From an uncultured Roseburia sp. (GTDB lineage Bacteria > Bacillota > Clostridia > Lachnospirales > Lachnospiraceae): a stretch of 64,000 nt of DNA. A program made the translations under genes and the position numbers. Below, in pieces: positions 1 through 7,483 of the stretch. The notes beneath the pieces were generated by a model. The model was given only the letters and a program-made list of their open reading frames with translations. It was not told the origin of the DNA and did not search any database. Numbering within the stretch: position 1 is the first letter of the stretch; every line of letters begins with the position of its first letter. The stretch is from positions 7,568 to 71,567 of the forward strand of contig CANDCP010000002.1 in NCBI GenBank assembly GCA_947383215.1. The letters are read 5' to 3'.

Positions 1-48
1 AAGTGTTATTGGTGAAACACCTGTAACAGAACTGAAATCTTTATTAGT

Positions 49-70
49 AAACCAATAGTCTGCTTTCAGG
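49..70. repeat. Left arm of the inverted repeat bracketing the small Cys-rich gene
   Basis: aaaccaat-ag-tctgctttcagg. Its reverse complement matches 414-433 (12 + 8 bp paired, 2-nt bulge). Confidence 0.8.
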
Positions 71-91
71 CGAAGAGAAAGGAGAAGAATT

Positions 92-370
92 ATGAATAAA
101 TTAATGAAAAAAGGTGTAATTACAACGATGGCGGCGGCAATGTTTTTTGGTCTCTTTGGCGGAGTTGTGCGAGTGAGTGCGTGCAATTCCAATTGGCATG
201 AGGTCGCCACATTAAAAAATTATTGTTCAACACCGATTTGCAATTATGCTGCCGGAGGCCTTCCTTATAGATATAAGGATATAAAATATGAAAGAAATTG
301 TGTTACGGATATGACAGGGGAAGCTTACAAAGAATACAAAACGGAAACAATAAATAGCGGATGCTGTTAA
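92..370 (+). CDS. Small secreted or lipidated cysteine-rich protein (92 aa), family unknown
   Basis: ATG with a ggag RBS 7 nt upstream. The K-rich plus hydrophobic signal ends in RVSA|C, which fits both AXA cleavage and a V-S-A-C lipobox. The mature part is about 61 aa with 6 Cys, including a C-terminal CC. The gene is visibly more AT-rich than its neighbours. Confidence 0.6.
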   Translation: MNKLMKKGVITTMAAAMFFGLFGGVVRVSACNSNWHEVATLKNYCSTPICNYAAGGLPYRYKDIKYERNCVTDMTGEAYKEYKTETINSGCC

Positions 371-413
371 AGAAGAAATGGAATCTTAATAGGGTTTGAT
401 TTTGGTATATTAA

Positions 414-433
414 CCTGAAAGCAGAATTGGTTT
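414..433. repeat. Right arm of the inverted repeat bracketing the small Cys-rich gene
   Basis: cctgaaagcaga-attggttt, the reverse complement of 49-70, followed by a T-rich run (ttgtt). Confidence 0.8.
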
Positions 434-457
434 TTGTTAGGGAGAGGAGCATAAGCT

Positions 458-1405
458 ATGATAAGAAAAAAGTTTTTGATTGTACTTTTGTCGTTTTGTG
501 TTTTTTGCAATTGTGCGTGCGGGCAGGAGAGGCCCAAGCAGGGATGGCAGTACGAGCCTGAGGTGATTCCGGATGCTCCGGAGACGGGGTATCAGATCGA
601 GGAGTGCACGTTAGAGGATATGGAGCAGCCGGCGGGCATTTGCCGGTTTCAGGATAAAATTGTGGTCAGCGATAAAGAAAAGCACTGCCTGTTTGTATTA
701 AATCCGGACGGAGAGTTGTTGAAATGTATCGGCGCCTTAGGAGGCGGGCAAGTAGAATTTATGCAGCCGACAGGTTTGACGGTGCATGACGGCAGACTCT
801 ATGTATTGGACGCAGGAAATGACAGGATACAGATATTGGATGGAGATTTTCAGTTTGTGGAGTCCATTACGCTCGGAGCCTTGGTGCATAAGCAGGGAGA
901 CCATTTTTATATTGATATCGCGGTCGATGAGGACGGTATAATTTATGTAAGTACGGACAGCGCAGGGAGGCTGGATTCCTTCCTGTATGTTGTAGAGGAT
1001 GGAGAAGTAAGTCATTTGGAAACGCCGTTTGTAGGGTATCTGGAGGAATATAACGGCGAGGTGTATGCCGCGGATTCTATGGAATTGAATGAAGAGGACG
1101 GGGAAGAAATTGGGCAGTCGGGCAGCAACAGCTTATATAAGATAAAAAATAAGAAGATGGAGAAAATCAGTCAGCTTCCCAATAAGATGACGCCAAATGA
1201 TTTTTGTAATGTAAAAGGAGAATTTTTTATGCTTTCCGCCGCATGGGGCACGCTTGTTAGAATGGACAAAGACGGAGAAAATGCGGAGTCTGTCTTAAAA
1301 TTAGAAAACGCGAACATGGGAATGTATCTGGCATATATTGAGGAAAAAGATGTATTTTATTTATCCGATCTAAGCGACAAAAAGCTGTACAGGATTTATA
1401 AATGA
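458..1405 (+). CDS. NHL-repeat-like beta-propeller protein with an N-terminal signal/anchor
   Basis: RBS ggagaggag. The N-terminus MIRKKFLIVLLSFCVFCNCAC is hydrophobic and Cys-rich. Blade-like motifs recur: GRLYVLDAGNDRIQILD, KIVVSDKEKHCLFVLNPDGELL, IIYVSTDSAGRL, VFYLSDLSDKKLYRI. Confidence 0.7.
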   Translation: MIRKKFLIVLLSFCVFCNCACGQERPKQGWQYEPEVIPDAPETGYQIEECTLEDMEQPAGICRFQDKIVVSDKEKHCLFVLNPDGELLKCIGALGGGQVEFMQPTGLTVHDGRLYVLDAGNDRIQILDGDFQFVESITLGALVHKQGDHFYIDIAVDEDGIIYVSTDSAGRLDSFLYVVEDGEVSHLETPFVGYLEEYNGEVYAADSMELNEEDGEEIGQSGSNSLYKIKNKKMEKISQLPNKMTPNDFCNVKGEFFMLSAAWGTLVRMDKDGENAESVLKLENANMGMYLAYIEEKDVFYLSDLSDKKLYRIYK

Positions 1406-1418
1406 GGAGGATAAGTTT

Positions 1419-2528
1419 ATGTTTATCCTAAAAAACGTATGGAACAGGATCATGTATCGTAAGGGAATCAGTTTTGTCCTGATTTTCTCAATTGCAGCCG
1501 GCTTTTTATGCCCGATTTATGTTCTCGGTGAAATTCATTTATTAAATGCGTTATACAGGGACAACCTTTATCCGAACGTTTCCGGGATATTGGCCGTCGG
1601 CTGTTTTAACAGTAGTATAGACAGCGGAATGGAAAAGGATATTTTAGAAAATACAGGGGCGGATAAAATTGCGTATGAATGTGTCTGCCAGGTTACGGCG
1701 GGCTGGAAGGAGGATTTGATTTCTTCCGTGGGAGGCGTGTCGCCGGTTTTCTTTCAAGTTACTCCGTATCTTCTGACAGAGGGAAGGATGTTTGCAGATG
1801 AGGATTTTAAAACGGACAAAAATATTTGTATATTAAAGGAAAGCTCCAGGCTTGCGTTAATGGGAGCGGGAGCAGGAGATTATGTAACCCTGAAGGGACG
1901 GAAATATCTTGTGGCAGGGGTTGTACGGGCTACCAGGGTGTATGCGGATGTCATTCTTCCTTATTGTGAGATGGACGGCATTATGGGTGGAAGAAGTATG
2001 CAGCACCGCATTTTGTTTATGCCGCTTACGCGGCTTGAGACGGGAGCATTAAAGGGACAGCTGGCGAAAAGCGGCATAGAAGACGTGTATTCCGTTATGA
2101 GCGTGGAAGAGGAAGAGCGTGAAGTGATGGCGCCAAGCTATCGGGAAAATCATAAAAAGTGGCTGGCGGTCGGGAGCGCGGTATTTGTTTTCGCCGCGCT
2201 TGGCGTATGGATTATAACATTGGGGAAGGCGTCGGGGGAGCGGCAGTTATACGGCATACAAAAAGCCCTGGGGGCGACCGACGGGCGGCTTTTTATGGAA
2301 GGGATTCTGCAAAATATAGCGCTTGTGGCGTGTGCTTTCGGGCTTGACGGAGCTATTCTCGCGCTGCCGATAGAAAAGATCCTGCCCTTTAAAGTGGAAT
2401 ACGGGCTTACTGTTTTTGGGCAGATATTGGGTATGGGCGTCGCGCTTGTCCTCTTTATGAGCAGCGTTTCTTTTCTTAAAATGAAAAAGGAGATCAGAGA
2501 GCTGATAGAAGGGGAGGTAGATTGGTGA
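1419..2528 (+). CDS. ABC transporter permease, FtsX/MacB-type
   Basis: RBS gaggagg. One N-terminal TM helix, a large extracytoplasmic domain and a C-terminal FtsX-like TM bundle (LYGIQKALGATDGRLFMEGILQN). Confidence 0.8.
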   Translation: MFILKNVWNRIMYRKGISFVLIFSIAAGFLCPIYVLGEIHLLNALYRDNLYPNVSGILAVGCFNSSIDSGMEKDILENTGADKIAYECVCQVTAGWKEDLISSVGGVSPVFFQVTPYLLTEGRMFADEDFKTDKNICILKESSRLALMGAGAGDYVTLKGRKYLVAGVVRATRVYADVILPYCEMDGIMGGRSMQHRILFMPLTRLETGALKGQLAKSGIEDVYSVMSVEEEEREVMAPSYRENHKKWLAVGSAVFVFAALGVWIITLGKASGERQLYGIQKALGATDGRLFMEGILQNIALVACAFGLDGAILALPIEKILPFKVEYGLTVFGQILGMGVALVLFMSSVSFLKMKKEIRELIEGEVDW

Positions 2529-3784
2529 GATATTTGTTATATCGCGTTTGGAAACAGCTGTGGAGTAACCGGAAAATTTATTGGCTGATTATCTTTGAGA
2601 TGGCCGTAGGAATATTCGTTTTGGTAACCTGCCTGAACCTTACGTTTACAAATCGGGAAGTGCTAGCGCGTTACAGGCAGGAGATGGCGGAGGGGATGAT
2701 ACCGATCCAATGGGAAGAAGGAGAGCCTGATAGGGAAGAGGAATATGAAAATGCATCCTGTCTGGCCATAGATTACGGTGGATATCTGCAATTGGAGCGG
2801 GAATATGAAAAGGAGCTGAATCTGTATTATACGGTTGTGGCCTTGGATACCTGTTTTTTTGAAGGGGAACAGGGAGAACTGTCAACGGCGGAAGTATGGT
2901 ATCTTTTTATGAATGACAATATGTTTGAGAAATGCTTTGGGTTTGCGAGGGAAAACGATCAGGCATATGCGGGAAGAAGGGCGTACAAATCGCTGAATAA
3001 AATGGGCGCGGCCGGGGAGGGGAACGTTAAGGCAGTCGTGCGTAGTTCGAATGAATTTCTGGCGAGGCAGGGAAAAATATGGTTTTCAGAAGGCTGCGGC
3101 GTAGAATACAAAGAGATACCGGCGGGAGAAAAAACAGAGTATATAAATCGGACGTCCGGAATCACAGAGCAGATACCTGTGGAGGACTGCGTTATCTGCC
3201 CGATTAGCCTTGCCGATGATTTTCATGTCCGAAAAGGGGCGGAAGACGTTATATTTATGGTACAATACAAAGGCGCCGACGAGCGGCCGGCTCTGTTTGA
3301 GGAGCTGTGCCAAAAAATAGAGGGTATGCAAGGGGGAAAATATATCGTTTATGTTTCGGACGAATACTTAAAAATGGAAAAGAGGGCGAAAGAGCAGGAT
3401 AATTTAGTTCGGATGTTTCTTGCCGTGTCGTTTGTTACGCTTGCCATTGTCACGGTAAGCATGATAGGAATCTTATTGATCGTGCTGCAGAAAAGGAAAA
3501 AAACGGCGGCCGTATCCTTTGCTTTTGGCGCCACTAAGATTAGAAACTTTATGGAGTTATTTGCGGAGGTGTTTTTGCTCTTTTTCACAGGCGCAGGTTT
3601 TGGGGTGTTGGTTTCGGCTGCCGCGTCCTTTGGTCTTTCCGGCGTTGCGACAGAAATTGGCTTTTATCCGGTCTGCCTGTTATATGTACTTGCATTCTGT
3701 CTGGTTACGTCGTCGGCGTGCTGTCTGATCGCGTTAGCCGGGGTAAAAAACAGGGAGCCGATAAAGGTCTTAAAGGAGTTGTAG
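2525..3784 (+). CDS. ABC transporter permease, FtsX/MacB-type (second copy)
   Basis: The GTG start overlaps the upstream stop (GTGA), with a ggggagg RBS. It has the same architecture: an N-terminal TM, a roughly 250-aa loop domain and a C-terminal FtsX-like segment (AAVSFAFGATKIRNFMELFAEVF). The ORF track starts 3 nt earlier, at a TTG. Confidence 0.75.
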   Translation: MRYLLYRVWKQLWSNRKIYWLIIFEMAVGIFVLVTCLNLTFTNREVLARYRQEMAEGMIPIQWEEGEPDREEEYENASCLAIDYGGYLQLEREYEKELNLYYTVVALDTCFFEGEQGELSTAEVWYLFMNDNMFEKCFGFARENDQAYAGRRAYKSLNKMGAAGEGNVKAVVRSSNEFLARQGKIWFSEGCGVEYKEIPAGEKTEYINRTSGITEQIPVEDCVICPISLADDFHVRKGAEDVIFMVQYKGADERPALFEELCQKIEGMQGGKYIVYVSDEYLKMEKRAKEQDNLVRMFLAVSFVTLAIVTVSMIGILLIVLQKRKKTAAVSFAFGATKIRNFMELFAEVFLLFFTGAGFGVLVSAAASFGLSGVATEIGFYPVCLLYVLAFCLVTSSACCLIALAGVKNREPIKVLKEL

Positions 3785-3790
3785 AATAAT

Positions 3791-4456
3791 ATGAAGATTA
3801 TCGCAATAAAAAATTTGATGAAAACATATCAGACCGGCGGTGCAAAAAATGAAGTTTTAAAAAACGTATGCCTGGAAGCGGAAAAAGGAGAATTTGTAGC
3901 CATTATGGGGCGTTCGGGATGCGGGAAGAGCACGCTGTTAAATATTATGGGCGGGATGGACAAAGCGGATGGCGGAAGTTATCTGTTTCATGGGGAACGG
4001 GTATCCGATTTTAACAGAAGGCAGCTGGCGCATTTCCGCAATAAGAACGTAGGTTTTGTGTTTCAGGCCTTCCATCTGCTTCCGGAATTTAACGTTATGG
4101 ATAACATATCGCTGCCTCTGGGATATGCCGGAGAAAAAGCGGCGCAGCGGAAGCAAAGGGCGAAACAGCTGCTGGAAATGGTTGGACTTGCAGGAAGGGA
4201 AAGGGACAAAGTATTTCAGCTGTCAGGCGGCGAGCGGCAGCGCGTAGCCATTGCGAGGGCTATTTCAAATCGACCGGAGGTTATTTTGGCGGATGAGCCC
4301 ACCGGAAGCCTGGACGAAGAAAACGGGGCAAAGATCATGCAGTTGCTGAAAAAACTGAACGGGCAGGGGGCGACGATTGTTATGGTGACGCATGATAAAA
4401 AGGTGGCCGGGTATGCCGACCGTGTTATTTATATGGAAAACGGAAATATAAAGTGA
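3791..4456 (+). CDS. ABC transporter ATP-binding protein, MacB/LolD-like
   Basis: Walker A GRSGCGKST, Q-loop FVFQ, signature LSGGERQRVAIARA, Walker B VILADEPTGSLD, H-loop VTHD. Confidence 0.95.
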   Translation: MKIIAIKNLMKTYQTGGAKNEVLKNVCLEAEKGEFVAIMGRSGCGKSTLLNIMGGMDKADGGSYLFHGERVSDFNRRQLAHFRNKNVGFVFQAFHLLPEFNVMDNISLPLGYAGEKAAQRKQRAKQLLEMVGLAGRERDKVFQLSGGERQRVAIARAISNRPEVILADEPTGSLDEENGAKIMQLLKKLNGQGATIVMVTHDKKVAGYADRVIYMENGNIK

Positions 4457-4569: not shown

Positions 4570-5424
4570 ATGGAGTGGATAAAAACTGTTGAAAATGCGA
4601 TCTCGTATATTGAGGAACATATTACCGAAGAGTTGACAGTTGGACGGATTGCCGACAATGTAAACATTTCTGCATTTTATTTTCAGAAAGGATTTTCTAT
4701 GTTATGCGGATACAGCGTGAGCGAGTACATCCGAAGGAGACGTTTATCGCTTGCCGGTGGAGAGCTGCTGTTATCGGATATTAAGGTAATTGATTTGGCA
4801 ATGAAATACGGTTATGATTCGCCCGATAGCTTTACGAAGGCTTTTATCCGTTTTCATGGGAGCACGCCGATGGCTGTGCGGCAAAACGGCGCGACATTAA
4901 AATCGTTTGCGCCGCTGCACATAAAATTAATTTTAGATGGAGGTACGATGATGGAGTACAGGATTGAAAAAAAGGCTGCATTTAAAGTAATGGGCGTGTC
5001 CAGAATGTTTTCTTATGAGACGGCAAACATGGAAATTCCGAAATATTGGGATGAGGTGCATCAGGGTGAGACAGAGAAGCTTGAGAGGGGCATGTATGGA
5101 ATCTGTTTTGATGAAAAAATGAATGGCGATCAATTTCGATATATGATAGCGGATGATCTGACGGAAGAGAACGCTTCGGAAAACGGCTTGGAAGAGTATG
5201 AGGTTTTGGCGCATACATGGGCCGTTTTCCCTTGTAAAGGCGCGATGCCGCAGGCTTTGCAGGAAGTCAATCGAAAGATTTTTTCCGAATGGCTTCCTTC
5301 CGGTAAATATGAGATCGTGGAGGGGTATAATATCGAGTATTACAGCGATCCGGCCAAGTTTAAGGGGGGTATGCAGGACGCGCAGTACTATGCGGAGATC
5401 TGGATTCCGGTAAAAGAGAAGTAA
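4570..5424 (+). CDS. AraC-family transcriptional regulator with a GyrI-like effector-binding domain
   Basis: N-terminal AraC double HTH (VGRIADNVNISAFYFQKGF ... YGYDSPDSFTKAFIRFHGSTP). The C-terminal half resembles GyrI/Rob-like ligand domains. Confidence 0.9.
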   Translation: MEWIKTVENAISYIEEHITEELTVGRIADNVNISAFYFQKGFSMLCGYSVSEYIRRRRLSLAGGELLLSDIKVIDLAMKYGYDSPDSFTKAFIRFHGSTPMAVRQNGATLKSFAPLHIKLILDGGTMMEYRIEKKAAFKVMGVSRMFSYETANMEIPKYWDEVHQGETEKLERGMYGICFDEKMNGDQFRYMIADDLTEENASENGLEEYEVLAHTWAVFPCKGAMPQALQEVNRKIFSEWLPSGKYEIVEGYNIEYYSDPAKFKGGMQDAQYYAEIWIPVKEK

Positions 5425-5566
5425 AAAGCAGAAATTTAAATAAGAGAGGAAAGGAGCCTTCAAGCCCGCAGGGGTTTGGGGGCTTTTATAAAAGTGGGGA
5501 AAGATTAGTAGATTATACGGGAAGTTTATGGTAAAATAGGGGACGAGATTGGAACAGGAGGATATT

Positions 5567-7483
5567 ATGGGAAAAGAAGATTACAAAAAAGCGCTTAAAT
5601 TAGGGAAAAAAGATTATCAAATGAGGCTGCTGCGGGGGGAGAGACCGATTCTGCAGGTTCTGGATGATATTTTGCCGGAGAGAGGATCCTACTCTGAGGT
5701 GCCGATTGGGCGGGTGCAGATTCCCATAGAGCAGATTGAAGGGACAAAGACTGTTGCGCGAAGCAGTTCGTTTGCGGGAAATTTTATGCCGATACTGCGG
5801 GAGGATACAGAATTTGCTTCAAAATGGATAAAGCTGCTGGACTCTCATGTGGAAGAGGGGATCCGTGATCCGATCAAAGTTTATGAATATCTGTATAAGT
5901 TTTATGTGATAGAGGGGAATAAGCGCGTAAGCGTAATGAAATACACCGGGGCTGTTTCGGTTCTGGGCGATGTGATTCGGATTGTGCCAAAGCGCACCGA
6001 AGAAAAAGAAAATAAGATTTATTATGAATATCTGGATTTCTATCGTTTGGCGCCGATTAATTATATCTGGTTTACGCAGGAGGGCGGATATGCCAAACTG
6101 CAGGAAGCGGTTGGAAAAGAGCCGGATGAAAAGTGGACGGAGGAAGAGATATTAAAATTCAGTTCCATTTTTACGCGTTTTACCGCGGAGTATCAGGCGA
6201 AAGGCGGCGATAAGCTGGATATTTCGACAGGCGACGCGTTTTTGGCGTTTATAACGCTGTACGGATACGATGTGATAGACGAAAAGACGACCAGTGAGAT
6301 GCAGGAGCTGATTGCGAAAAGCTGGGAAGAGTTTGAGCTTTTGGGGGAGGATTCGGAGATTGATCTAAAGATGAAGCCGAGTCAGAAAAAGAAGTCGCCG
6401 CTTAGCATTTTGCATCTTCCGGCACAGGGGCCGCGAAAGTTAAATATAGCGTTTGTCTATGAGAAAACGCCGGGGACTTCTGCCTGGACATACGCGCATG
6501 AGCTCGGCCGGCTTCATCTTGAACAGACGTTTCCGGAAGAAGTACATACGGTTTGTTATGAGAACGGAACGCAGGAAAATATCGACTCCCTGCTTGAAGA
6601 TGCCGTAAATTCGGGCTGCGACATGATCTTTACGACGACGCCGGCGTTCGTACAGGCCAGTGTGAAAGCGGCGATTGCCAATCCGAAGGTTCGGATCTTA
6701 AATTGTTCCCTGAATACGTCGCACCGGTATATTCGGACGTATTATTCCAGGATGTATGAGGCTAAATTTCTGATGGGGGCGATTGCCGGGGCAATGGCCG
6801 AGAACAATAAGCTGACTTATATTGCGGATTACCCGATTTACGGTTCTATTGCAAATATCAACGCTTTTGCGCTTGGCGCAAAGATGATAAATCCGAGGGC
6901 GAAGGTTTATCTCGAATGGTCCGCGAAGAAAGAGACGGATATAGAAGAGAGTATCCGGGAGACGGGGTCTTCCTGTATTTCAGGGAGAGATATGGTAATT
7001 CCGGAGGAGGCTTCCCGTTTTTTCGGTATTTATCATATTGATGAAGGCGGCCTGAGGAATTTTGGTATGCCGCTTTGGCATTGGGGAAAGTTCTACGAGC
7101 AGTTAATCTGCGCGATTATGGACGGAACCTGGAGGTACGACGACGACCCCTCTACGATGAAGGCCATCAATTACTGGTGGGGGATGTCGGAGGGCGTGAT
7201 TGACGTGGTATTTTCCAAATATCTGCCGATCGGGCAGAAGCGTCTGGCGGGGCTTTTAAAAACGGCCATCAGTACAGAAGTATTTAATCCGTTTTCGGGT
7301 ATACTATATTCTCAGACGGGCGTAGTATCGGACGATCCGGGCCGGATTCTTACTTCCGAAGAAATTATGACGATGGACTGGCTTGCGGAGAATGTAATCG
7401 GGAGCATTCCGGATAAAGAAGAATTAAAAGAGCAGGCGGAGCCTGTGATCAAGCAGCAGGGAGTAAAGAAAAACGAGGGTTAA
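5567..7483 (+). CDS. Cytoplasmic ParB/Srx-like N-terminal domain fused to a BMP (PnrA/Med-like) ligand-binding domain
   Basis: ATG with an aggagg RBS; the track ORF begins 18 nt earlier at a TTG. The N-terminal part carries DPIKVYEY..KFYVIEGNKRVSVMKY, typical of ParB-like folds. The C-terminal part carries LNIAFVYEKTPGTSAWTYAHELGR ... GCDMIFTTTPAFV, typical of BMP-family binding proteins. No signal peptide is present. Confidence 0.7.
   Translation: MGKEDYKKALKLGKKDYQMRLLRGERPILQVLDDILPERGSYSEVPIGRVQIPIEQIEGTKTVARSSSFAGNFMPILREDTEFASKWIKLLDSHVEEGIRDPIKVYEYLYKFYVIEGNKRVSVMKYTGAVSVLGDVIRIVPKRTEEKENKIYYEYLDFYRLAPINYIWFTQEGGYAKLQEAVGKEPDEKWTEEEILKFSSIFTRFTAEYQAKGGDKLDISTGDAFLAFITLYGYDVIDEKTTSEMQELIAKSWEEFELLGEDSEIDLKMKPSQKKKSPLSILHLPAQGPRKLNIAFVYEKTPGTSAWTYAHELGRLHLEQTFPEEVHTVCYENGTQENIDSLLEDAVNSGCDMIFTTTPAFVQASVKAAIANPKVRILNCSLNTSHRYIRTYYSRMYEAKFLMGAIAGAMAENNKLTYIADYPIYGSIANINAFALGAKMINPRAKVYLEWSAKKETDIEESIRETGSSCISGRDMVIPEEASRFFGIYHIDEGGLRNFGMPLWHWGKFYEQLICAIMDGTWRYDDDPSTMKAINYWWGMSEGVIDVVFSKYLPIGQKRLAGLLKTAISTEVFNPFSGILYSQTGVVSDDPGRILTSEEIMTMDWLAENVIGSIPDKEELKEQAEPVIKQQGVKKNEG

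Follow-up and report, generated by a model that had tools for sequence, protein, structure and literature searches.

The locus of lactococcin 972, a class IId bacteriocin, consists of a gene for a Sec-dependent bacteriocin followed by those for a membrane permease and a MacB-type ATPase, in keeping with the descriptions of the families TIGR03608 and TIGR01654. The heat-stable enterotoxin STII of E. coli is exported by Sec, oxidized by DsbA and expelled by MacAB-TolC. Self-immunity against lantibiotics is provided by LanI and LanFEG, and in Bacillus subtilis YknWXYZ protects against the SdpC toxin. We know of no client peptide of NHLRC2. In proteins of the NHLRC2/SOQ1 type, a six-bladed NHL propeller is joined in one chain to a thioredoxin-like domain (PDB 6gc1, PMC6107167). 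Lactococcin 972 is devoid of cysteines (PMC8538875), and the bacteroidetocins (class IIf) of gut Bacteroidales require a locus-encoded thiol oxidoreductase for activity, their hosts being gut anaerobes without general disulfide machinery (PMC6671954).

The locus analyzed here lies at the left end of a stretch of 64,000 nucleotides (the window) from a mouse-gut Roseburia-like bacterium. A preliminary description, based on the window sequence, had recognized five genes (Table 1), all of which were found at the coordinates assigned to them, and had proposed a self-contained module responsible for producing a disulfide-rich secreted peptide and, thereafter, for processing it, exporting it or protecting against it. 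This proposal is supported to the limit of what comparative genomics can provide. The genes listed for the module stand; the list was nevertheless incomplete, as it lacked a thioredoxin protein with two CxxC motifs (here named Trx2) and the LytTR two-component system which accompanies the module in this lineage. The corresponding genes, i.e. the double-thioredoxin gene and a divergent LytTR regulator gene with that of its histidine kinase, are located to the left of the window and had thus not been seen. The whole locus is best explained as an eight-gene accessory cassette of ~7 kb, extending from G000:C2:4978 to window position 4456. Because all six Cys are kept by the homologues and the same set is found again at 12 independent loci, the gene set is not due to chance. 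It is, on balance, probable that the cassette specifies a Sec-exported, disulfide-rich, bacteriocin-like peptide together with a dedicated foldase and ABC-mediated self-protection, the peptide most likely being a narrow-spectrum antagonistic (bacteriocin-like) agent and a bacterial competition peptide of a new type.

Table 1 Features of the cassette in the window
Feature	Position	Strand	Details
Trx2 gene end, last 58 nt	1..58	+	whole gene G000:C2:6750-7625, mostly left of the window
Inverted repeat, 5' arm	49..70	+	12 nt perfect, 20 nt with a 2-nt bulge; RNAduplex z-score -3.6
Six-Cys secreted peptide precursor gene	92..370	+	92 aa; ORF and RBS, family, model, RNA contig
Signal peptide segment	92-181	+	predicted SPase I cleavage at VSA/C
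Mature peptide segment	182-367	+	62 aa; predicted cleavage site
Inverted repeat, 3' arm	414..433	+	44 nt past the peptide stop, ahead of the NHL RBS
Six-bladed NHL/DUF5128 beta-propeller lipoprotein	458..1405	+	315 aa; Pfam, lipobox, AlphaFold, Foldseek, adjacency
FtsX-type permease a (FtsXa)	1419..2528	+	369 aa; PF12704 4.5e-11 and PF02687
FtsX-type permease b (FtsXb)	2525..3784	+	419 aa; PF02687 1.3e-8
MacB/LolD-type ABC ATPase	3791..4456	+	221 aa; PF00005 7e-35

A family of six-cysteine secreted peptides

The small ORF represents a genuine gene, which founds an undescribed family. It is preceded by a good RBS (aaggagaag, 6-8 nt before the start) and is located in an AT-rich region, the first 500 nt having a GC content of 35.8% versus ~45-50% downstream, and all six Cys of its product, including the terminal CC, follow the signal peptide, in line with the good RBS, the AT-rich ORF and the Cys content previously described. 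A profile search (E<=1e-3) retrieved about 60 clusters, so the ORF is conserved; the 60 representatives have a length of 79-131 aa. Behind the signal peptide, the family shares the frame C-x11-15-C-x4-5-C-x16-23-C-x17-21-CC, exactly six Cys in this fixed frame being present in 55 of the 62 family members, and the invariant or near-invariant positions are C31, W35, C45, C50, C70, G90, C91 and C92. The non-Cys surface is hypervariable, as judged from the family alignment and dN. In the confident AlphaFold model (pLDDT of about 88-94), the mature part forms a sheet of three beta strands. No match to the family was obtained in Pfam, NCBIfam, PDB sequences or Foldseek (PDB and viral libraries), in agreement with the initial impression that the peptide falls outside known bacteriocin and RiPP families. 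Since net charge varies between -5 and +12 within the family, with a value of 0 for the window peptide, the latter is unlike typical cationic membrane-active bacteriocins. This net charge was weighed against the bacteriocin reading.

Proteins encoded alongside the peptide

Trx2 is a 291-aa protein with an N-terminal membrane anchor and two thioredoxin-fold domains, which carry the CxxC motifs CHGC and CKDC. It matches Thioredoxin_2 (1.5e-6), Thioredoxin and Thioredoxin_8 of Pfam, and its two CxxC motifs and two cis-Pro positions show no variation among 10 homologues. Searches of its own genome for VKOR, DsbD_TM and DsbB returned none, the positive controls being found in the same searches; a dedicated disulfide enzyme would therefore be needed. 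The same genome searches (VKOR, DsbD, DsbB) identified no oxidant which would recycle Trx2 in a strict anaerobe, a point weighed against the bacteriocin reading.

The NHL-type protein, the gene for which begins 88 nt downstream of the peptide gene as first noted, matches PF01436 (NHL, 6e-13) and PF17170 (DUF5128, 2e-10). Its lipobox Cys is retained without exception among 8 orthologues, the relatives showing AGC, GGC, ISC, TGC and VGC at this site, and its AlphaFold model has a pLDDT of 78 and a pTM of 0.79. The best Foldseek matches of the propeller are the NHL domains of TRIM2, TRIM71 and Thin, the Vgb lyase and NHLRC2 (E 1.8e-9). No invariant His, Arg, Glu or non-lipobox Cys is present in the propeller among the orthologues, and the earlier hint at a PAL-like processing enzyme is not borne out, as conserved enzyme-like residues are lacking. 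We propose that the NHL lipoprotein is a putative peptide-binding partner, serving as a folding scaffold and/or immunity protein.

FtsXa combines a MacB-like extracytoplasmic core domain (MacB_PCD) with the FtsX C-terminal bundle, and its orthologues occur in 10 of the 12 loci. The reported GTGA coupling was recovered, the GTG start of FtsXb at 2525 overlapping the FtsXa stop. The MacB/LolD-type assignment of the ATPase likewise holds, with NCBIfam scores of 240 bits for LolD, 235 for DarD and 231 for MacB, all under the respective cut-offs; the score against the ABC protein of the lactococcin-972 group (L_ocin_972_ABC, TIGR03608) is 229 bits, with a cut-off of 254.85.

Synteny, distribution and evolution

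Co-occurrence of the peptide, NHL and ABC genes, which had been suggested as a check, was found across 12 independent loci (designated L below): an orthologous NHL gene is adjacent in 12/12, the FtsX-FtsX-ATPase set in 10/12, and a Trx2 homologue adjoins the peptide gene in 11/12. NHL genes without an adjacent small Cys-rich ORF had been named as a refuting observation; it did not refute the proposal, as no member of the orthologous NHL subfamily was met apart from the peptide, and generic NHL proteins elsewhere are accompanied by these partners in 0/32 cases. Gene order and peptide copy number differ among loci, the peptide gene being located 5' of NHL in the window, L003, L011, L058 and L060, and 3' of the ATPase gene in L019, while L009/L010 carry two peptide genes 3' of NHL. 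L009 combines its two peptide genes with three transporter sets, a single NHL and a single Trx2, copy numbers which fit transporters acting as peptide-specific immunity and Trx2/NHL acting as shared maturation factors. In L057 and L062/L063 only the trio of peptide, Trx2 and NHL genes is present and the FtsX/ABC set is not adjacent; the pump would thus be dispensable there and any immunity must come from elsewhere. These trio-only loci were weighed against the reading as a bacteriocin with ABC immunity.

A 7.0-kb block, which ends at window position 4452, is common to the present locus and L003, and encompasses the LytTR regulator and GHKL kinase genes; this two-component system is confined to the two closest loci and missing from the other 10. 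The cassette is a rare one, carried by about 1% of genera, the family occurring in 4/401 genera of its taxonomic family, in 2/400 other genomes of the class and in 1/400 of the phylum. It is also accessory and movable: the block is missing from the same-genus genome G162, in which the neighbouring genes are kept, the neighbours in L060 include relaxase, NikA and reverse-transcriptase genes, an IS91 transposase gene lies next to L058, and an IS element is inserted within the cassette of L020. In one pairwise comparison, evolution of the mature peptide outpaces that of its partner proteins severalfold, with a dN of 0.265 and a dN/dS of 0.46 as compared with 0.024-0.098 and 0.09-0.19, respectively, for Trx2, NHL, FtsX and ABC.

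Transcription and a putative long-range RNA stem

An exact metatranscriptome contig of 266 nt, corresponding to window positions 149-414, covers the peptide gene and represents in vivo RNA; its depth of 4.7 is the highest among 8 exact contigs over 28 kb, all from a single run at very low depth. A second exact contig (3536-3691) lies within FtsXb. The inverted repeat flanking the peptide gene is read here, from its sequence, as a putative long-range RNA stem closing around the peptide cistron. The stem closes both the MFE and the centroid folds of window positions 40-445 (z = -3.0), and the bracket topology recurs with other sequences in L003, L011, L021, L019 and L057. Since an A>G change in the L003 arm leaves pairing solely as G-U, the arms in that locus can pair there in RNA and not in DNA. 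The 3' end of the RNA contig falls exactly at 414, possibly by coincidence at that depth.

Proposed mechanism and alternative explanations

In the mechanism which we propose, the 92-aa precursor would be exported through Sec, with signal peptidase I cleaving it behind VSA, as judged from its sequence and from comparison within the family. Trx2, anchored outside the membrane, may then form or shuffle three disulfides, for which the bacteroidetocin thiol oxidoreductase offers a precedent, and the NHL lipoprotein might bind the peptide on the outer membrane face, either as a substrate-holding partner of Trx2 (a split pair resembling NHLRC2/SOQ1) or as a sequestering immunity protein. Heterodimeric FtsX and the ATPase would constitute a mechanotransmission machine of the MacB/LolCDE type on the outer face, which could keep the mature peptide off the producer membrane and so provide self-immunity and/or release; because the peptide has a Sec signal, the FtsX/ABC pump would not be needed for membrane crossing. 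The LytTR response regulator and the short-sensor GHKL kinase may control the operon in this lineage, and the RNA stem probably separates the peptide mRNA from the accessory genes.

Two alternatives concern the nature of the small ORF. That it is a chance ORF next to an unrelated NHL/ABC transporter operon, a reading already refuted by homologues, the family profile search and synteny, is scarcely conceivable: small size and AT-richness, and nothing more, speak for it, against 60 clusters of homologues in which the Cys frame does not vary, synteny kept in 12 loci, an excess of synonymous over non-synonymous change (dN/dS 0.46), a confident predicted fold and the RNA contig over the gene. The signal end RVSA/C, taken alone, is compatible with an SPase I site and a strict lipobox alike, as had been pointed out, and a lipoprotein anchored on the producer, for instance as a surface or adhesion factor, would follow from the match of the window V-S-A-C to the pattern [LVI][ASTVI][GAS]C. 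However, the window peptide is the sole fit to this pattern among 62 family members. Because the signal reads VSA/SC in an 89%-identical relative and VDA/KC in a 70% relative, an AxA cleavage site lies 0-3 residues ahead of the first Cys family-wide; the peptide, by its sequence, appears not to be a lipoprotein, a role which is very improbable.

The remaining two alternatives concern the function of the peptide. A signal (pheromone or autoinducer), folded by Trx2/NHL, released and sensed by the LytTR system, perhaps through FtsX/ABC as in Bce-type flux sensing, would account for the presence, inside the conserved block, of the LytTR regulator and of a GHKL kinase whose sensor region is very short; a separate induction-peptide gene was not seen at the locus, the peptide is not cationic, and its rapid evolution would also be compatible with pherotype divergence. 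Yet peptide, Trx2 and NHL persist in the other 10 loci, which are without the two-component system, and a 60-aa three-disulfide product with its own ABC, duplicated transporters and mobile links is more typical of toxin/immunity loci, so a signalling role appears unlikely. A similarly low probability is given to the trio being an envelope thiol-redox or metal-handling unit, in which the peptide serves as client, redox carrier or metal ligand rather than as an exported weapon, the ABC being an add-on. The trio-only loci L057 and L062, the fused Trx and NHL proteins (NHLRC2, PDB 6gc1) among the structural neighbours of the propeller and the genome without a recycling oxidase are in its favour, whereas a housekeeping envelope role is at odds with the ~1% occurrence, with the same-genus genome that lacks the cassette and with the mobile elements linked to it. 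The hypervariable non-Cys surface and, in L009, the peptide paralogues with multiplied transporters also speak against this alternative.

Comparison with known systems

The antagonistic peptide system favoured here resembles that of lactococcin 972 in the length of its Sec-signal-bearing precursor (about 91-92 aa), in a beta-rich mature part of about 60-66 aa, and in the downstream same-strand genes for a MacB/FtsX-type permease and an ATPase. Unlike lactococcin 972, the cassette peptide has six Cys, and no family member matched Pfam Lactococcin_972 even at E<=10; the cassette permease consists of two 4-TM FtsX halves, the ATPase remains below the TIGR03608 cut-off of 254.85, and the lactococcin 972 locus is without a thioredoxin protein or an NHL lipoprotein. 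With the bacteroidetocins, the cassette shares a disulfide peptide of a strict gut anaerobe and a locus-borne thiol oxidoreductase; these differ in their double-glycine leader, C39-peptidase ABC exporter, four Cys and 42-aa mature peptide (PMC6671954), are without an NHL propeller and an FtsX-type pump, and show no sequence relation to the cassette peptide.

As in the STII route, a Sec-exported small disulfide peptide would be met on the outer face by an ABC machine of the FtsX/MacB type, which here, like LolCDE of the type VII ABC superfamily, comprises two different FtsX-type permeases and a single LolD-like ATPase. In contrast to STII and MacAB-TolC, the host is a monoderm Firmicute without adaptor, TolC or outer membrane, and because there is no outer membrane to cross, the pump more likely serves immunity or release than secretion; the cassette also has a dedicated two-domain oxidoreductase and an NHL lipoprotein. 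The pairing of a thioredoxin-fold redox domain with an NHL propeller recalls NHLRC2/SOQ1, a likeness of folds; in the cassette, however, the genes are separate, two catalytic Trx domains are present, and the thioredoxin and NHL parts are each tethered to the membrane outside the cytoplasm. The LanFEG pump belongs to the ABC-2 type and LanI lacks a propeller, and no sequence relation to them is expected. The proposed two-layer protection, in which a peptide-binding surface lipoprotein is joined by a membrane-clearing ABC, is nevertheless like that of LanI with LanFEG and, YknYZ being of the FtsX/MacB type, like that of YknWXYZ.

Extent and borders of the cassette

Taken together, the results define a cassette that is dedicated and horizontally mobile, in which a Sec-exported, Cys-framed peptide is encoded together with a private thioredoxin enzyme, a propeller lipoprotein and, usually, a MacB-type pump. 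All gene elements named in the preliminary description were recovered at their reported positions in both the ORF list and the raw sequence, and three further cassette genes lie in the 7.5 kb to the left of the window. The window corresponds to G000:C2:7568-71567 and therefore cuts the cassette. The first of the three left-hand genes, adjoining the peptide gene, specifies a double-thioredoxin, membrane-anchored protein (here Trx2), while the other two encode a two-component system. The peptide precursor consists of the signal MNKLMKKGVITTMAAAMFFGLFGGVVRVSA followed by CNSNW...SGCC, all six Cys being located after the signal.

Features of the cassette and of the inverted repeats around the peptide gene (window positions unless a genome or locus is named; G000:C2, contig of the source genome; L-numbers, loci of relatives; z, RNAduplex score relative to shuffles)
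Feature	Position	Characteristics
GHKL (HATPase_c_5) histidine kinase and Response_reg+LytTR regulator	left of the window, divergent from Trx2	assigned by domain content
Kinase ORF as listed	G000:C2:5760-6761	333 aa
Trx2 gene	directly upstream of the peptide gene; last 58 nt at 1-58	291 aa; two thioredoxin-fold domains, CHGC and CKDC
Six-Cys peptide ORF	92-370	92 codons; good RBS
NHL/DUF5128 protein	458-1405	downstream of the peptide gene
FtsX-type permeases (FtsXa, FtsXb)	1419-2528 and 2525-3784	GTGA overlap between the two genes
MacB/LolD-type ATPase	3791-4456	Pfam/NCBIfam matches
AraC/GyrI-like regulator	4570-5424	outside the cassette
Stem, window	49-70/414-433	z -3.6
Stem, L003	9969-9983/10319-10333	z -6.2
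Stem, L011	1009-1023/1326-1340	z -4.7
Stem, L021	peptide-gene flanks	z -4.7
Stem, L057		z -2.9
Stem, L019	peptide-gene flanks	z -2.1
Stem, L058		z not significant; perfect 12-mer

Alignment by blastn with the closest relative, an uncultured Roseburia sp. MAG (loci L003 and L022), yielded one 7.0-kb block of 84.8% identity, spanning window positions -2536 to 4452, the borders of which correspond exactly to the regulator and the ATPase stop; beyond the ATPase the sequence is unrelated to L003. The AraC/GyrI-like regulator is replaced in this relative and is therefore not considered part of the cassette. In G162, a genome of the same genus, the downstream ParB-BMP/phosphoesterase genes are kept and the block is absent. 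The G162 homologue (G162:C34:25579-27507) of the ParB-like/BMP fusion (window 5549-7483) is 86% identical, with one in-frame TAG reported.

The left end of the contig (G000:C2:147-2996), 2-7 kb upstream of the cassette, contains fragments of a RhuM-like protein, a tyrosine-recombinase-like ORF of 359 aa and a truncated serine recombinase, a gene content that suggests the remnants of an integrated element.

A family of secreted six-cysteine peptides

Word-seeded homologue searches recovered only three clusters with the single peptide (100, 89 and 70% identity, six Cys in all) and only ten with a 62-sequence alignment, so that an exhaustive profile search was required. Using a six-sequence query, this search retrieved 60 representatives at E<=1e-3, including 11 at E<=1e-10, all of 79-131 aa, and additional small ORFs with a matching Cys frame were found in the neighbourhoods of more distant NHL homologues. 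Sequence evidence establishes the small ORF as a genuine gene and as the founder of a family.

Within the 62-sequence alignment C50, C70 and C91 are invariant, and C31, W35, C45, G90 and C92 nearly so. Exactly six Cys are present in 55 of the 62 members, arranged as C-x11-15-C-x4-5-C-x16-23-C-x17-21-CC and followed by a tail of 0-4 residues. Across the 62 members the net charge lies between -5 and +12; that of the window's peptide is 0. In an AlphaFold2 model based on the six-sequence alignment, the mature part (pLDDT ~88-94) adopts three long antiparallel strands (36-51, 57-71 and 78-91) and the signal peptide is disordered. Two members deviate from the common C-terminus: that of L057 (L057:9858-10130, genome G637) ends in GCV and has jointly lost Cys3 and Cys6, a loss that hints at a Cys3-Cys6 disulfide and is the sole clue to the connectivity, and that of L068 (L068:1903-2172, genome G1106) ends in GCSCT, with one residue between the two terminal Cys.

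The absence of a recognisable bacteriocin or RiPP family, previously judged by eye, was borne out by database searches, since the peptide matched nothing in Pfam, NCBIfam or PADLOC, even at E<=10. A sequence profile search of the PDB returned noise only (best E 0.063), Foldseek comparison of the model with the PDB and a viral library gave nothing below E 0.38, and nothing retrieved in literature searches described the peptide family or an NHL, thioredoxin and FtsX locus of bacteriocin type.

The signal end of the window's peptide, RVSA ahead of the first Cys, had been described as compatible with both signal peptidase I cleavage and a lipobox. This holds for the sequence itself; for the family the lipobox does not stand, as the strict motif [LVI][ASTVI][GAS]C fits 1/62 members only, namely the V-S-A-C of the window. 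Residues 1-24 of the signal peptide are identical in three close homologues, the corresponding ends being VSA-S-C in the 89% relative and VDA-K-C in the 70% relative, and most family members carry an AxA site 0-3 residues ahead of the first Cys. The family is therefore taken to be cut by signal peptidase I, and the peptide is predicted to be secreted without a lipid anchor.

Association of the peptide with its partner genes

Loci were annotated with phmmer and hmmsearch (using the window's proteins and the family HMM) together with gene tables or ORFs, resulting in 12 non-redundant loci. The orthologous NHL gene adjoins the peptide gene in 12/12 loci and Trx2 in 11/12, the twelfth, L068, being a 4.9-kb contig that ends inside a permease. 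The FtsXa-FtsXb-ATPase set is adjacent in ten of the twelve, with peptide, Trx2 and NHL genes occurring without such a set in L057 and L062/L063.

Gene order varies among these loci. The peptide gene precedes that of the NHL protein in the window, L003, L011, L021, L058 and L060; two paralogous peptide genes are located 3' of it in L009/L010 (Candidatus Scybalocola faecavium); in L019 the peptide gene is 3' of the ATPase gene, and in L020 an IS (DDE) transposase (L020:10364-11692) lies between peptide and NHL genes. In L009 (9385-16813) the two peptide paralogues are followed by three consecutive FtsXa-FtsXb-ATPase sets, one of which is decayed (its FtsXa reduced to a fragment of 58 aa), with a single NHL and a single Trx2 gene.

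For comparison, 32 control loci whose NHL proteins are generic and come from other taxa (mostly unrelated phyla, obtained with a narrower NHL alignment) were inspected, and neither a Trx2-like neighbour (0/32) nor a family peptide (0/32) was present. The association is therefore specific to the NHL subfamily of the cassette, and NHL genes lacking an adjacent small Cys-rich ORF, which the preliminary description had named as evidence against its module, are confined here to the generic controls.

Thioredoxin, propeller and pump

Domain 2 of Trx2 matches PF13098 (29.0 bits, cut-off 27), domain 1 scoring below the cut-offs. Ten homologues, down to 23% identity, retain the two CxxC motifs and the two cis-Pro positions without exception, and the protein has an N-terminal TM helix; on these features Trx2 is predicted to be a thioredoxin-fold thiol-disulfide oxidoreductase. 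A PedC-like match is weak and concerns a truncated relative. The source genome, which is 99% complete, yielded no VKOR, DsbB, DsbD_TM or CcdA-type protein in searches that included positive controls, so that any disulfide chemistry on the peptide has to be supplied by the cassette itself.

The NHL protein matches PF01436 (48.6 bits, cut-off 20) and PF17170 (40.7 bits, cut-off 22.9), and its AlphaFold model is a six-bladed propeller (pTM 0.79, 24 strands). Its nearest structures in Foldseek are the ligand-binding NHL domains of TRIM2, Thin and TRIM71 (E ~1e-11), with virginiamycin B lyase and NHLRC2 also among the nearest. Because the signal peptide ends at an invariant Cys (Cys21) in a lipobox context across orthologues (LAGC, GGC, ISC, TGC and VGC in relatives), the protein is assigned as a lipoprotein. 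Over eight orthologues the invariant columns are K4, C21, P58, G92, G95, P104, D118, Y163, G193, S221, G222 and S260, and the propeller contains no invariant His, Arg, Glu or Cys other than that of the lipobox, which argues for a binding protein rather than a PAL-like enzyme.

PAL has conserved metal-binding His residues and a catalytic Tyr/Arg, and its substrate is extended by a C-terminal Gly. The suggestion that the propeller might process the peptide as PAL lyase does could not be sustained, given the lack of invariant His and Arg in the eight orthologues and the absence of PAL from the top 50 structural matches in Foldseek; a PAL-type propeller enzyme was also rejected on the substrate side, as the C-terminus of the peptides is GCC, in some cases extended by a few residues, and not Gly.

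FtsXa matches PF12704 and PF02687, FtsXb PF02687 and the ATPase PF00005, and the permeases have the topology and domains of MacB, in which an N-terminal TM helix and a large extracytoplasmic domain (MacB_PCD) precede a C-terminal FtsX bundle. The best NCBIfam models for the ATPase are LolD, DarD and MacB, and the permeases match ADOP/MacB weakly only. Since no equivalog cut-off was reached, the pump is assigned to the MacB, or type VII ABC, transporters at superfamily level only. It does not qualify as LolCDE: the LolD score falls short of its cut-off (240 bits, 307.75 required), the permeases gave no LolC or LolE match, and the host is a Lachnospiraceae-type Firmicute, whereas a diderm host with LolA/LolB is expected for LolCDE. 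With its Sec signal, the peptide does not need the pump to cross the membrane. MacB and LolCDE work by mechanotransmission, and by analogy the pump should act on the outer face of the membrane.

Regulation, expression and a stem around the peptide gene

The Response_reg+LytTR regulator and the GHKL kinase are present only in the window's genome and in L003/L022. An internal Met near C2:6602 is the probable start of the kinase, as judged by an RBS (GGAGGAG) and a 277-aa call in L003; from this start its membrane sensor region is very short. Such a short sensor recalls intramembrane-sensing kinases that depend on an ABC transporter. Peptide-regulated LytTR/HPK10-type systems of class II bacteriocin loci comprise a polytopic sensor kinase and a cognate induction peptide; no gene for an induction peptide was found. 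The divergent promoter region (147 nt) shares 90% identity with that of L003, a conservation exceeding that of nearby synonymous sites.

The locus was found in mouse and rat gut metagenomes. In X24, an Illumina metatranscriptome, exact-match contigs were obtained for window 149-414, on the peptide gene at depth 4.7, and for 3536-3691, on FtsXb at depth 2.5, and only six more were present across window 1-28000, five of them on an LtaS-like gene (depth 2.6-3.8). Transcription of the peptide gene thus takes place in vivo, at a level no lower than that of the few other genes detectable at this very low coverage. Contigs from X4, a run labelled 'metatranscriptomic WXS', were not trusted as RNA, nor as evidence of co-transcription, because they span divergent genes.

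An inverted repeat brackets the peptide gene, and the only RNA contig on that gene stops exactly at 414, the start of the 3' arm. When window 40-445 is folded, the MFE and the centroid structure are each closed by this stem (z = -3.0). The same bracket topology, built from unrelated sequences, recurs in several other distant loci (see table); RNAduplex detected no bracketing stem in L020, L060, L062, L064 or L009. Such a long-range RNA stem may separate the peptide cistron from the remaining genes through processing or stability, and could represent an RNase III-type processing or stabilising element. An invertible DNA segment (inverton) is a less likely explanation of the repeat and was not adopted, because contigs of four runs contain no strand-switch joints, the conserved block has no recombinase gene, and one arm change in L003 keeps pairing solely as G-U.

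Distribution and evolution

Genuine family matches were obtained in 4/401 genera of the same family, 2/400 other genomes of the class and 1/400 other genomes of the phylum; the peptide family is rare. In L060 (5677-11186) the cassette adjoins genes for a relaxase, NikA, a helicase and a group-II-intron-type reverse transcriptase, and in L058 (140-1324 and 8581-9714) those for an IS91 transposase and a DsbD_2 membrane protein.

In a single pairwise comparison of the window with L003, which is indicative only, the mature peptide (dN 0.265, dN/dS 0.46) evolves faster than its partners, the corresponding values being 0.024 and 0.14 for Trx2, 0.065 and 0.15 for the NHL protein, 0.091 and 0.19 for FtsXa, 0.098 and 0.18 for FtsXb, and 0.096 and 0.09 for the ATPase.

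Interpretation and significance

The best-supported reading, which we place just on the probable side, is that of an antagonistic (bacteriocin-like) peptide with pump-based self-protection. It draws on the patchy distribution, the links to mobile elements, the hypervariable payload on a fixed frame, the multiplication of peptides and transporters, the lineage LytTR system, and the precedent of the bacteroidetocin oxidoreductase (PMC6671954). That the peptide is a signalling molecule appears unlikely, and we also find it improbable that the peptide, Trx2 and NHL genes constitute a unit for envelope redox or metal handling.

If antagonism is indeed the function, the peptides would form a new family of unmodified, disulfide-rich antagonistic peptides in gut Lachnospiraceae and their relatives, from which, to our knowledge, few bacteriocins have been characterised. 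The accessory logic would likewise be new, in that a peptide with a Sec signal is accompanied by a double-thioredoxin oxidoreductase of its own, a lipoprotein with a propeller fold and a pump of the MacB type. Current mining tools, which rely on double-glycine leaders, C39 exporters and known Pfam families, miss such loci. The cassette also offers a testable role for bacterial NHL/DUF5128 propeller lipoproteins and for the orphan FtsX pairs of monoderms, and raises the question of how three disulfides are made outside a strict anaerobe with no known recycling oxidase. With its rigid Cys frame and hypervariable surface, the peptide is an attractive scaffold for peptide engineering.

More tentatively, Trx2 and the NHL protein may work jointly outside the cytoplasm as a foldase dedicated to Sec-dependent, disulfide-knotted peptides, corresponding to NHLRC2/SOQ1 split into two proteins. 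Were this so, the clients would be a previously unrecognised class of ribosomal peptides of strict anaerobes without DsbB, VKOR or DsbD, the Clostridia cassette would be a branch of a much wider 'Cys-rich peptide + propeller + thioredoxin' system, and its MacB-type pump would be the first type VII ABC machine of a monoderm dedicated to a self-made folded peptide.

Comparison with known systems

In NHLRC2/SOQ1 a thioredoxin-like domain and an NHL propeller reside in one polypeptide, whereas Trx2 and the NHL protein are encoded by separate genes in 12/12 loci; the likeness is in parts only, and the cassette does not belong to that family. Compared with pediocin-like and double-glycine class II bacteriocins, a Sec signal carrying an AxA site takes the place of the double-glycine leader, exporters of the C39 or ABC-membrane kind are missing from the block, whose genes are FtsX-type, and YGNGV does not occur in the alignment. 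With regard to lactococcin 972, none of six family members matched the Lactococcin_972 profile or any other in Pfam (E<=10), the peptide had no NCBIfam match, the ATPase scored 229.4 bits against TIGR03608, the ABC partner of lactococcin 972 (cut-off 254.85), and TIGR01654, the model for the bacteriocin-associated 7-TM immunity protein, gave no permease match. Bacteroidetocins provide a precedent for an oxidoreductase encoded within the locus (PMC6671954). Relative to lactococcin 972 and similar Sec-dependent class II loci, both the peptide family and its accessory set are new.
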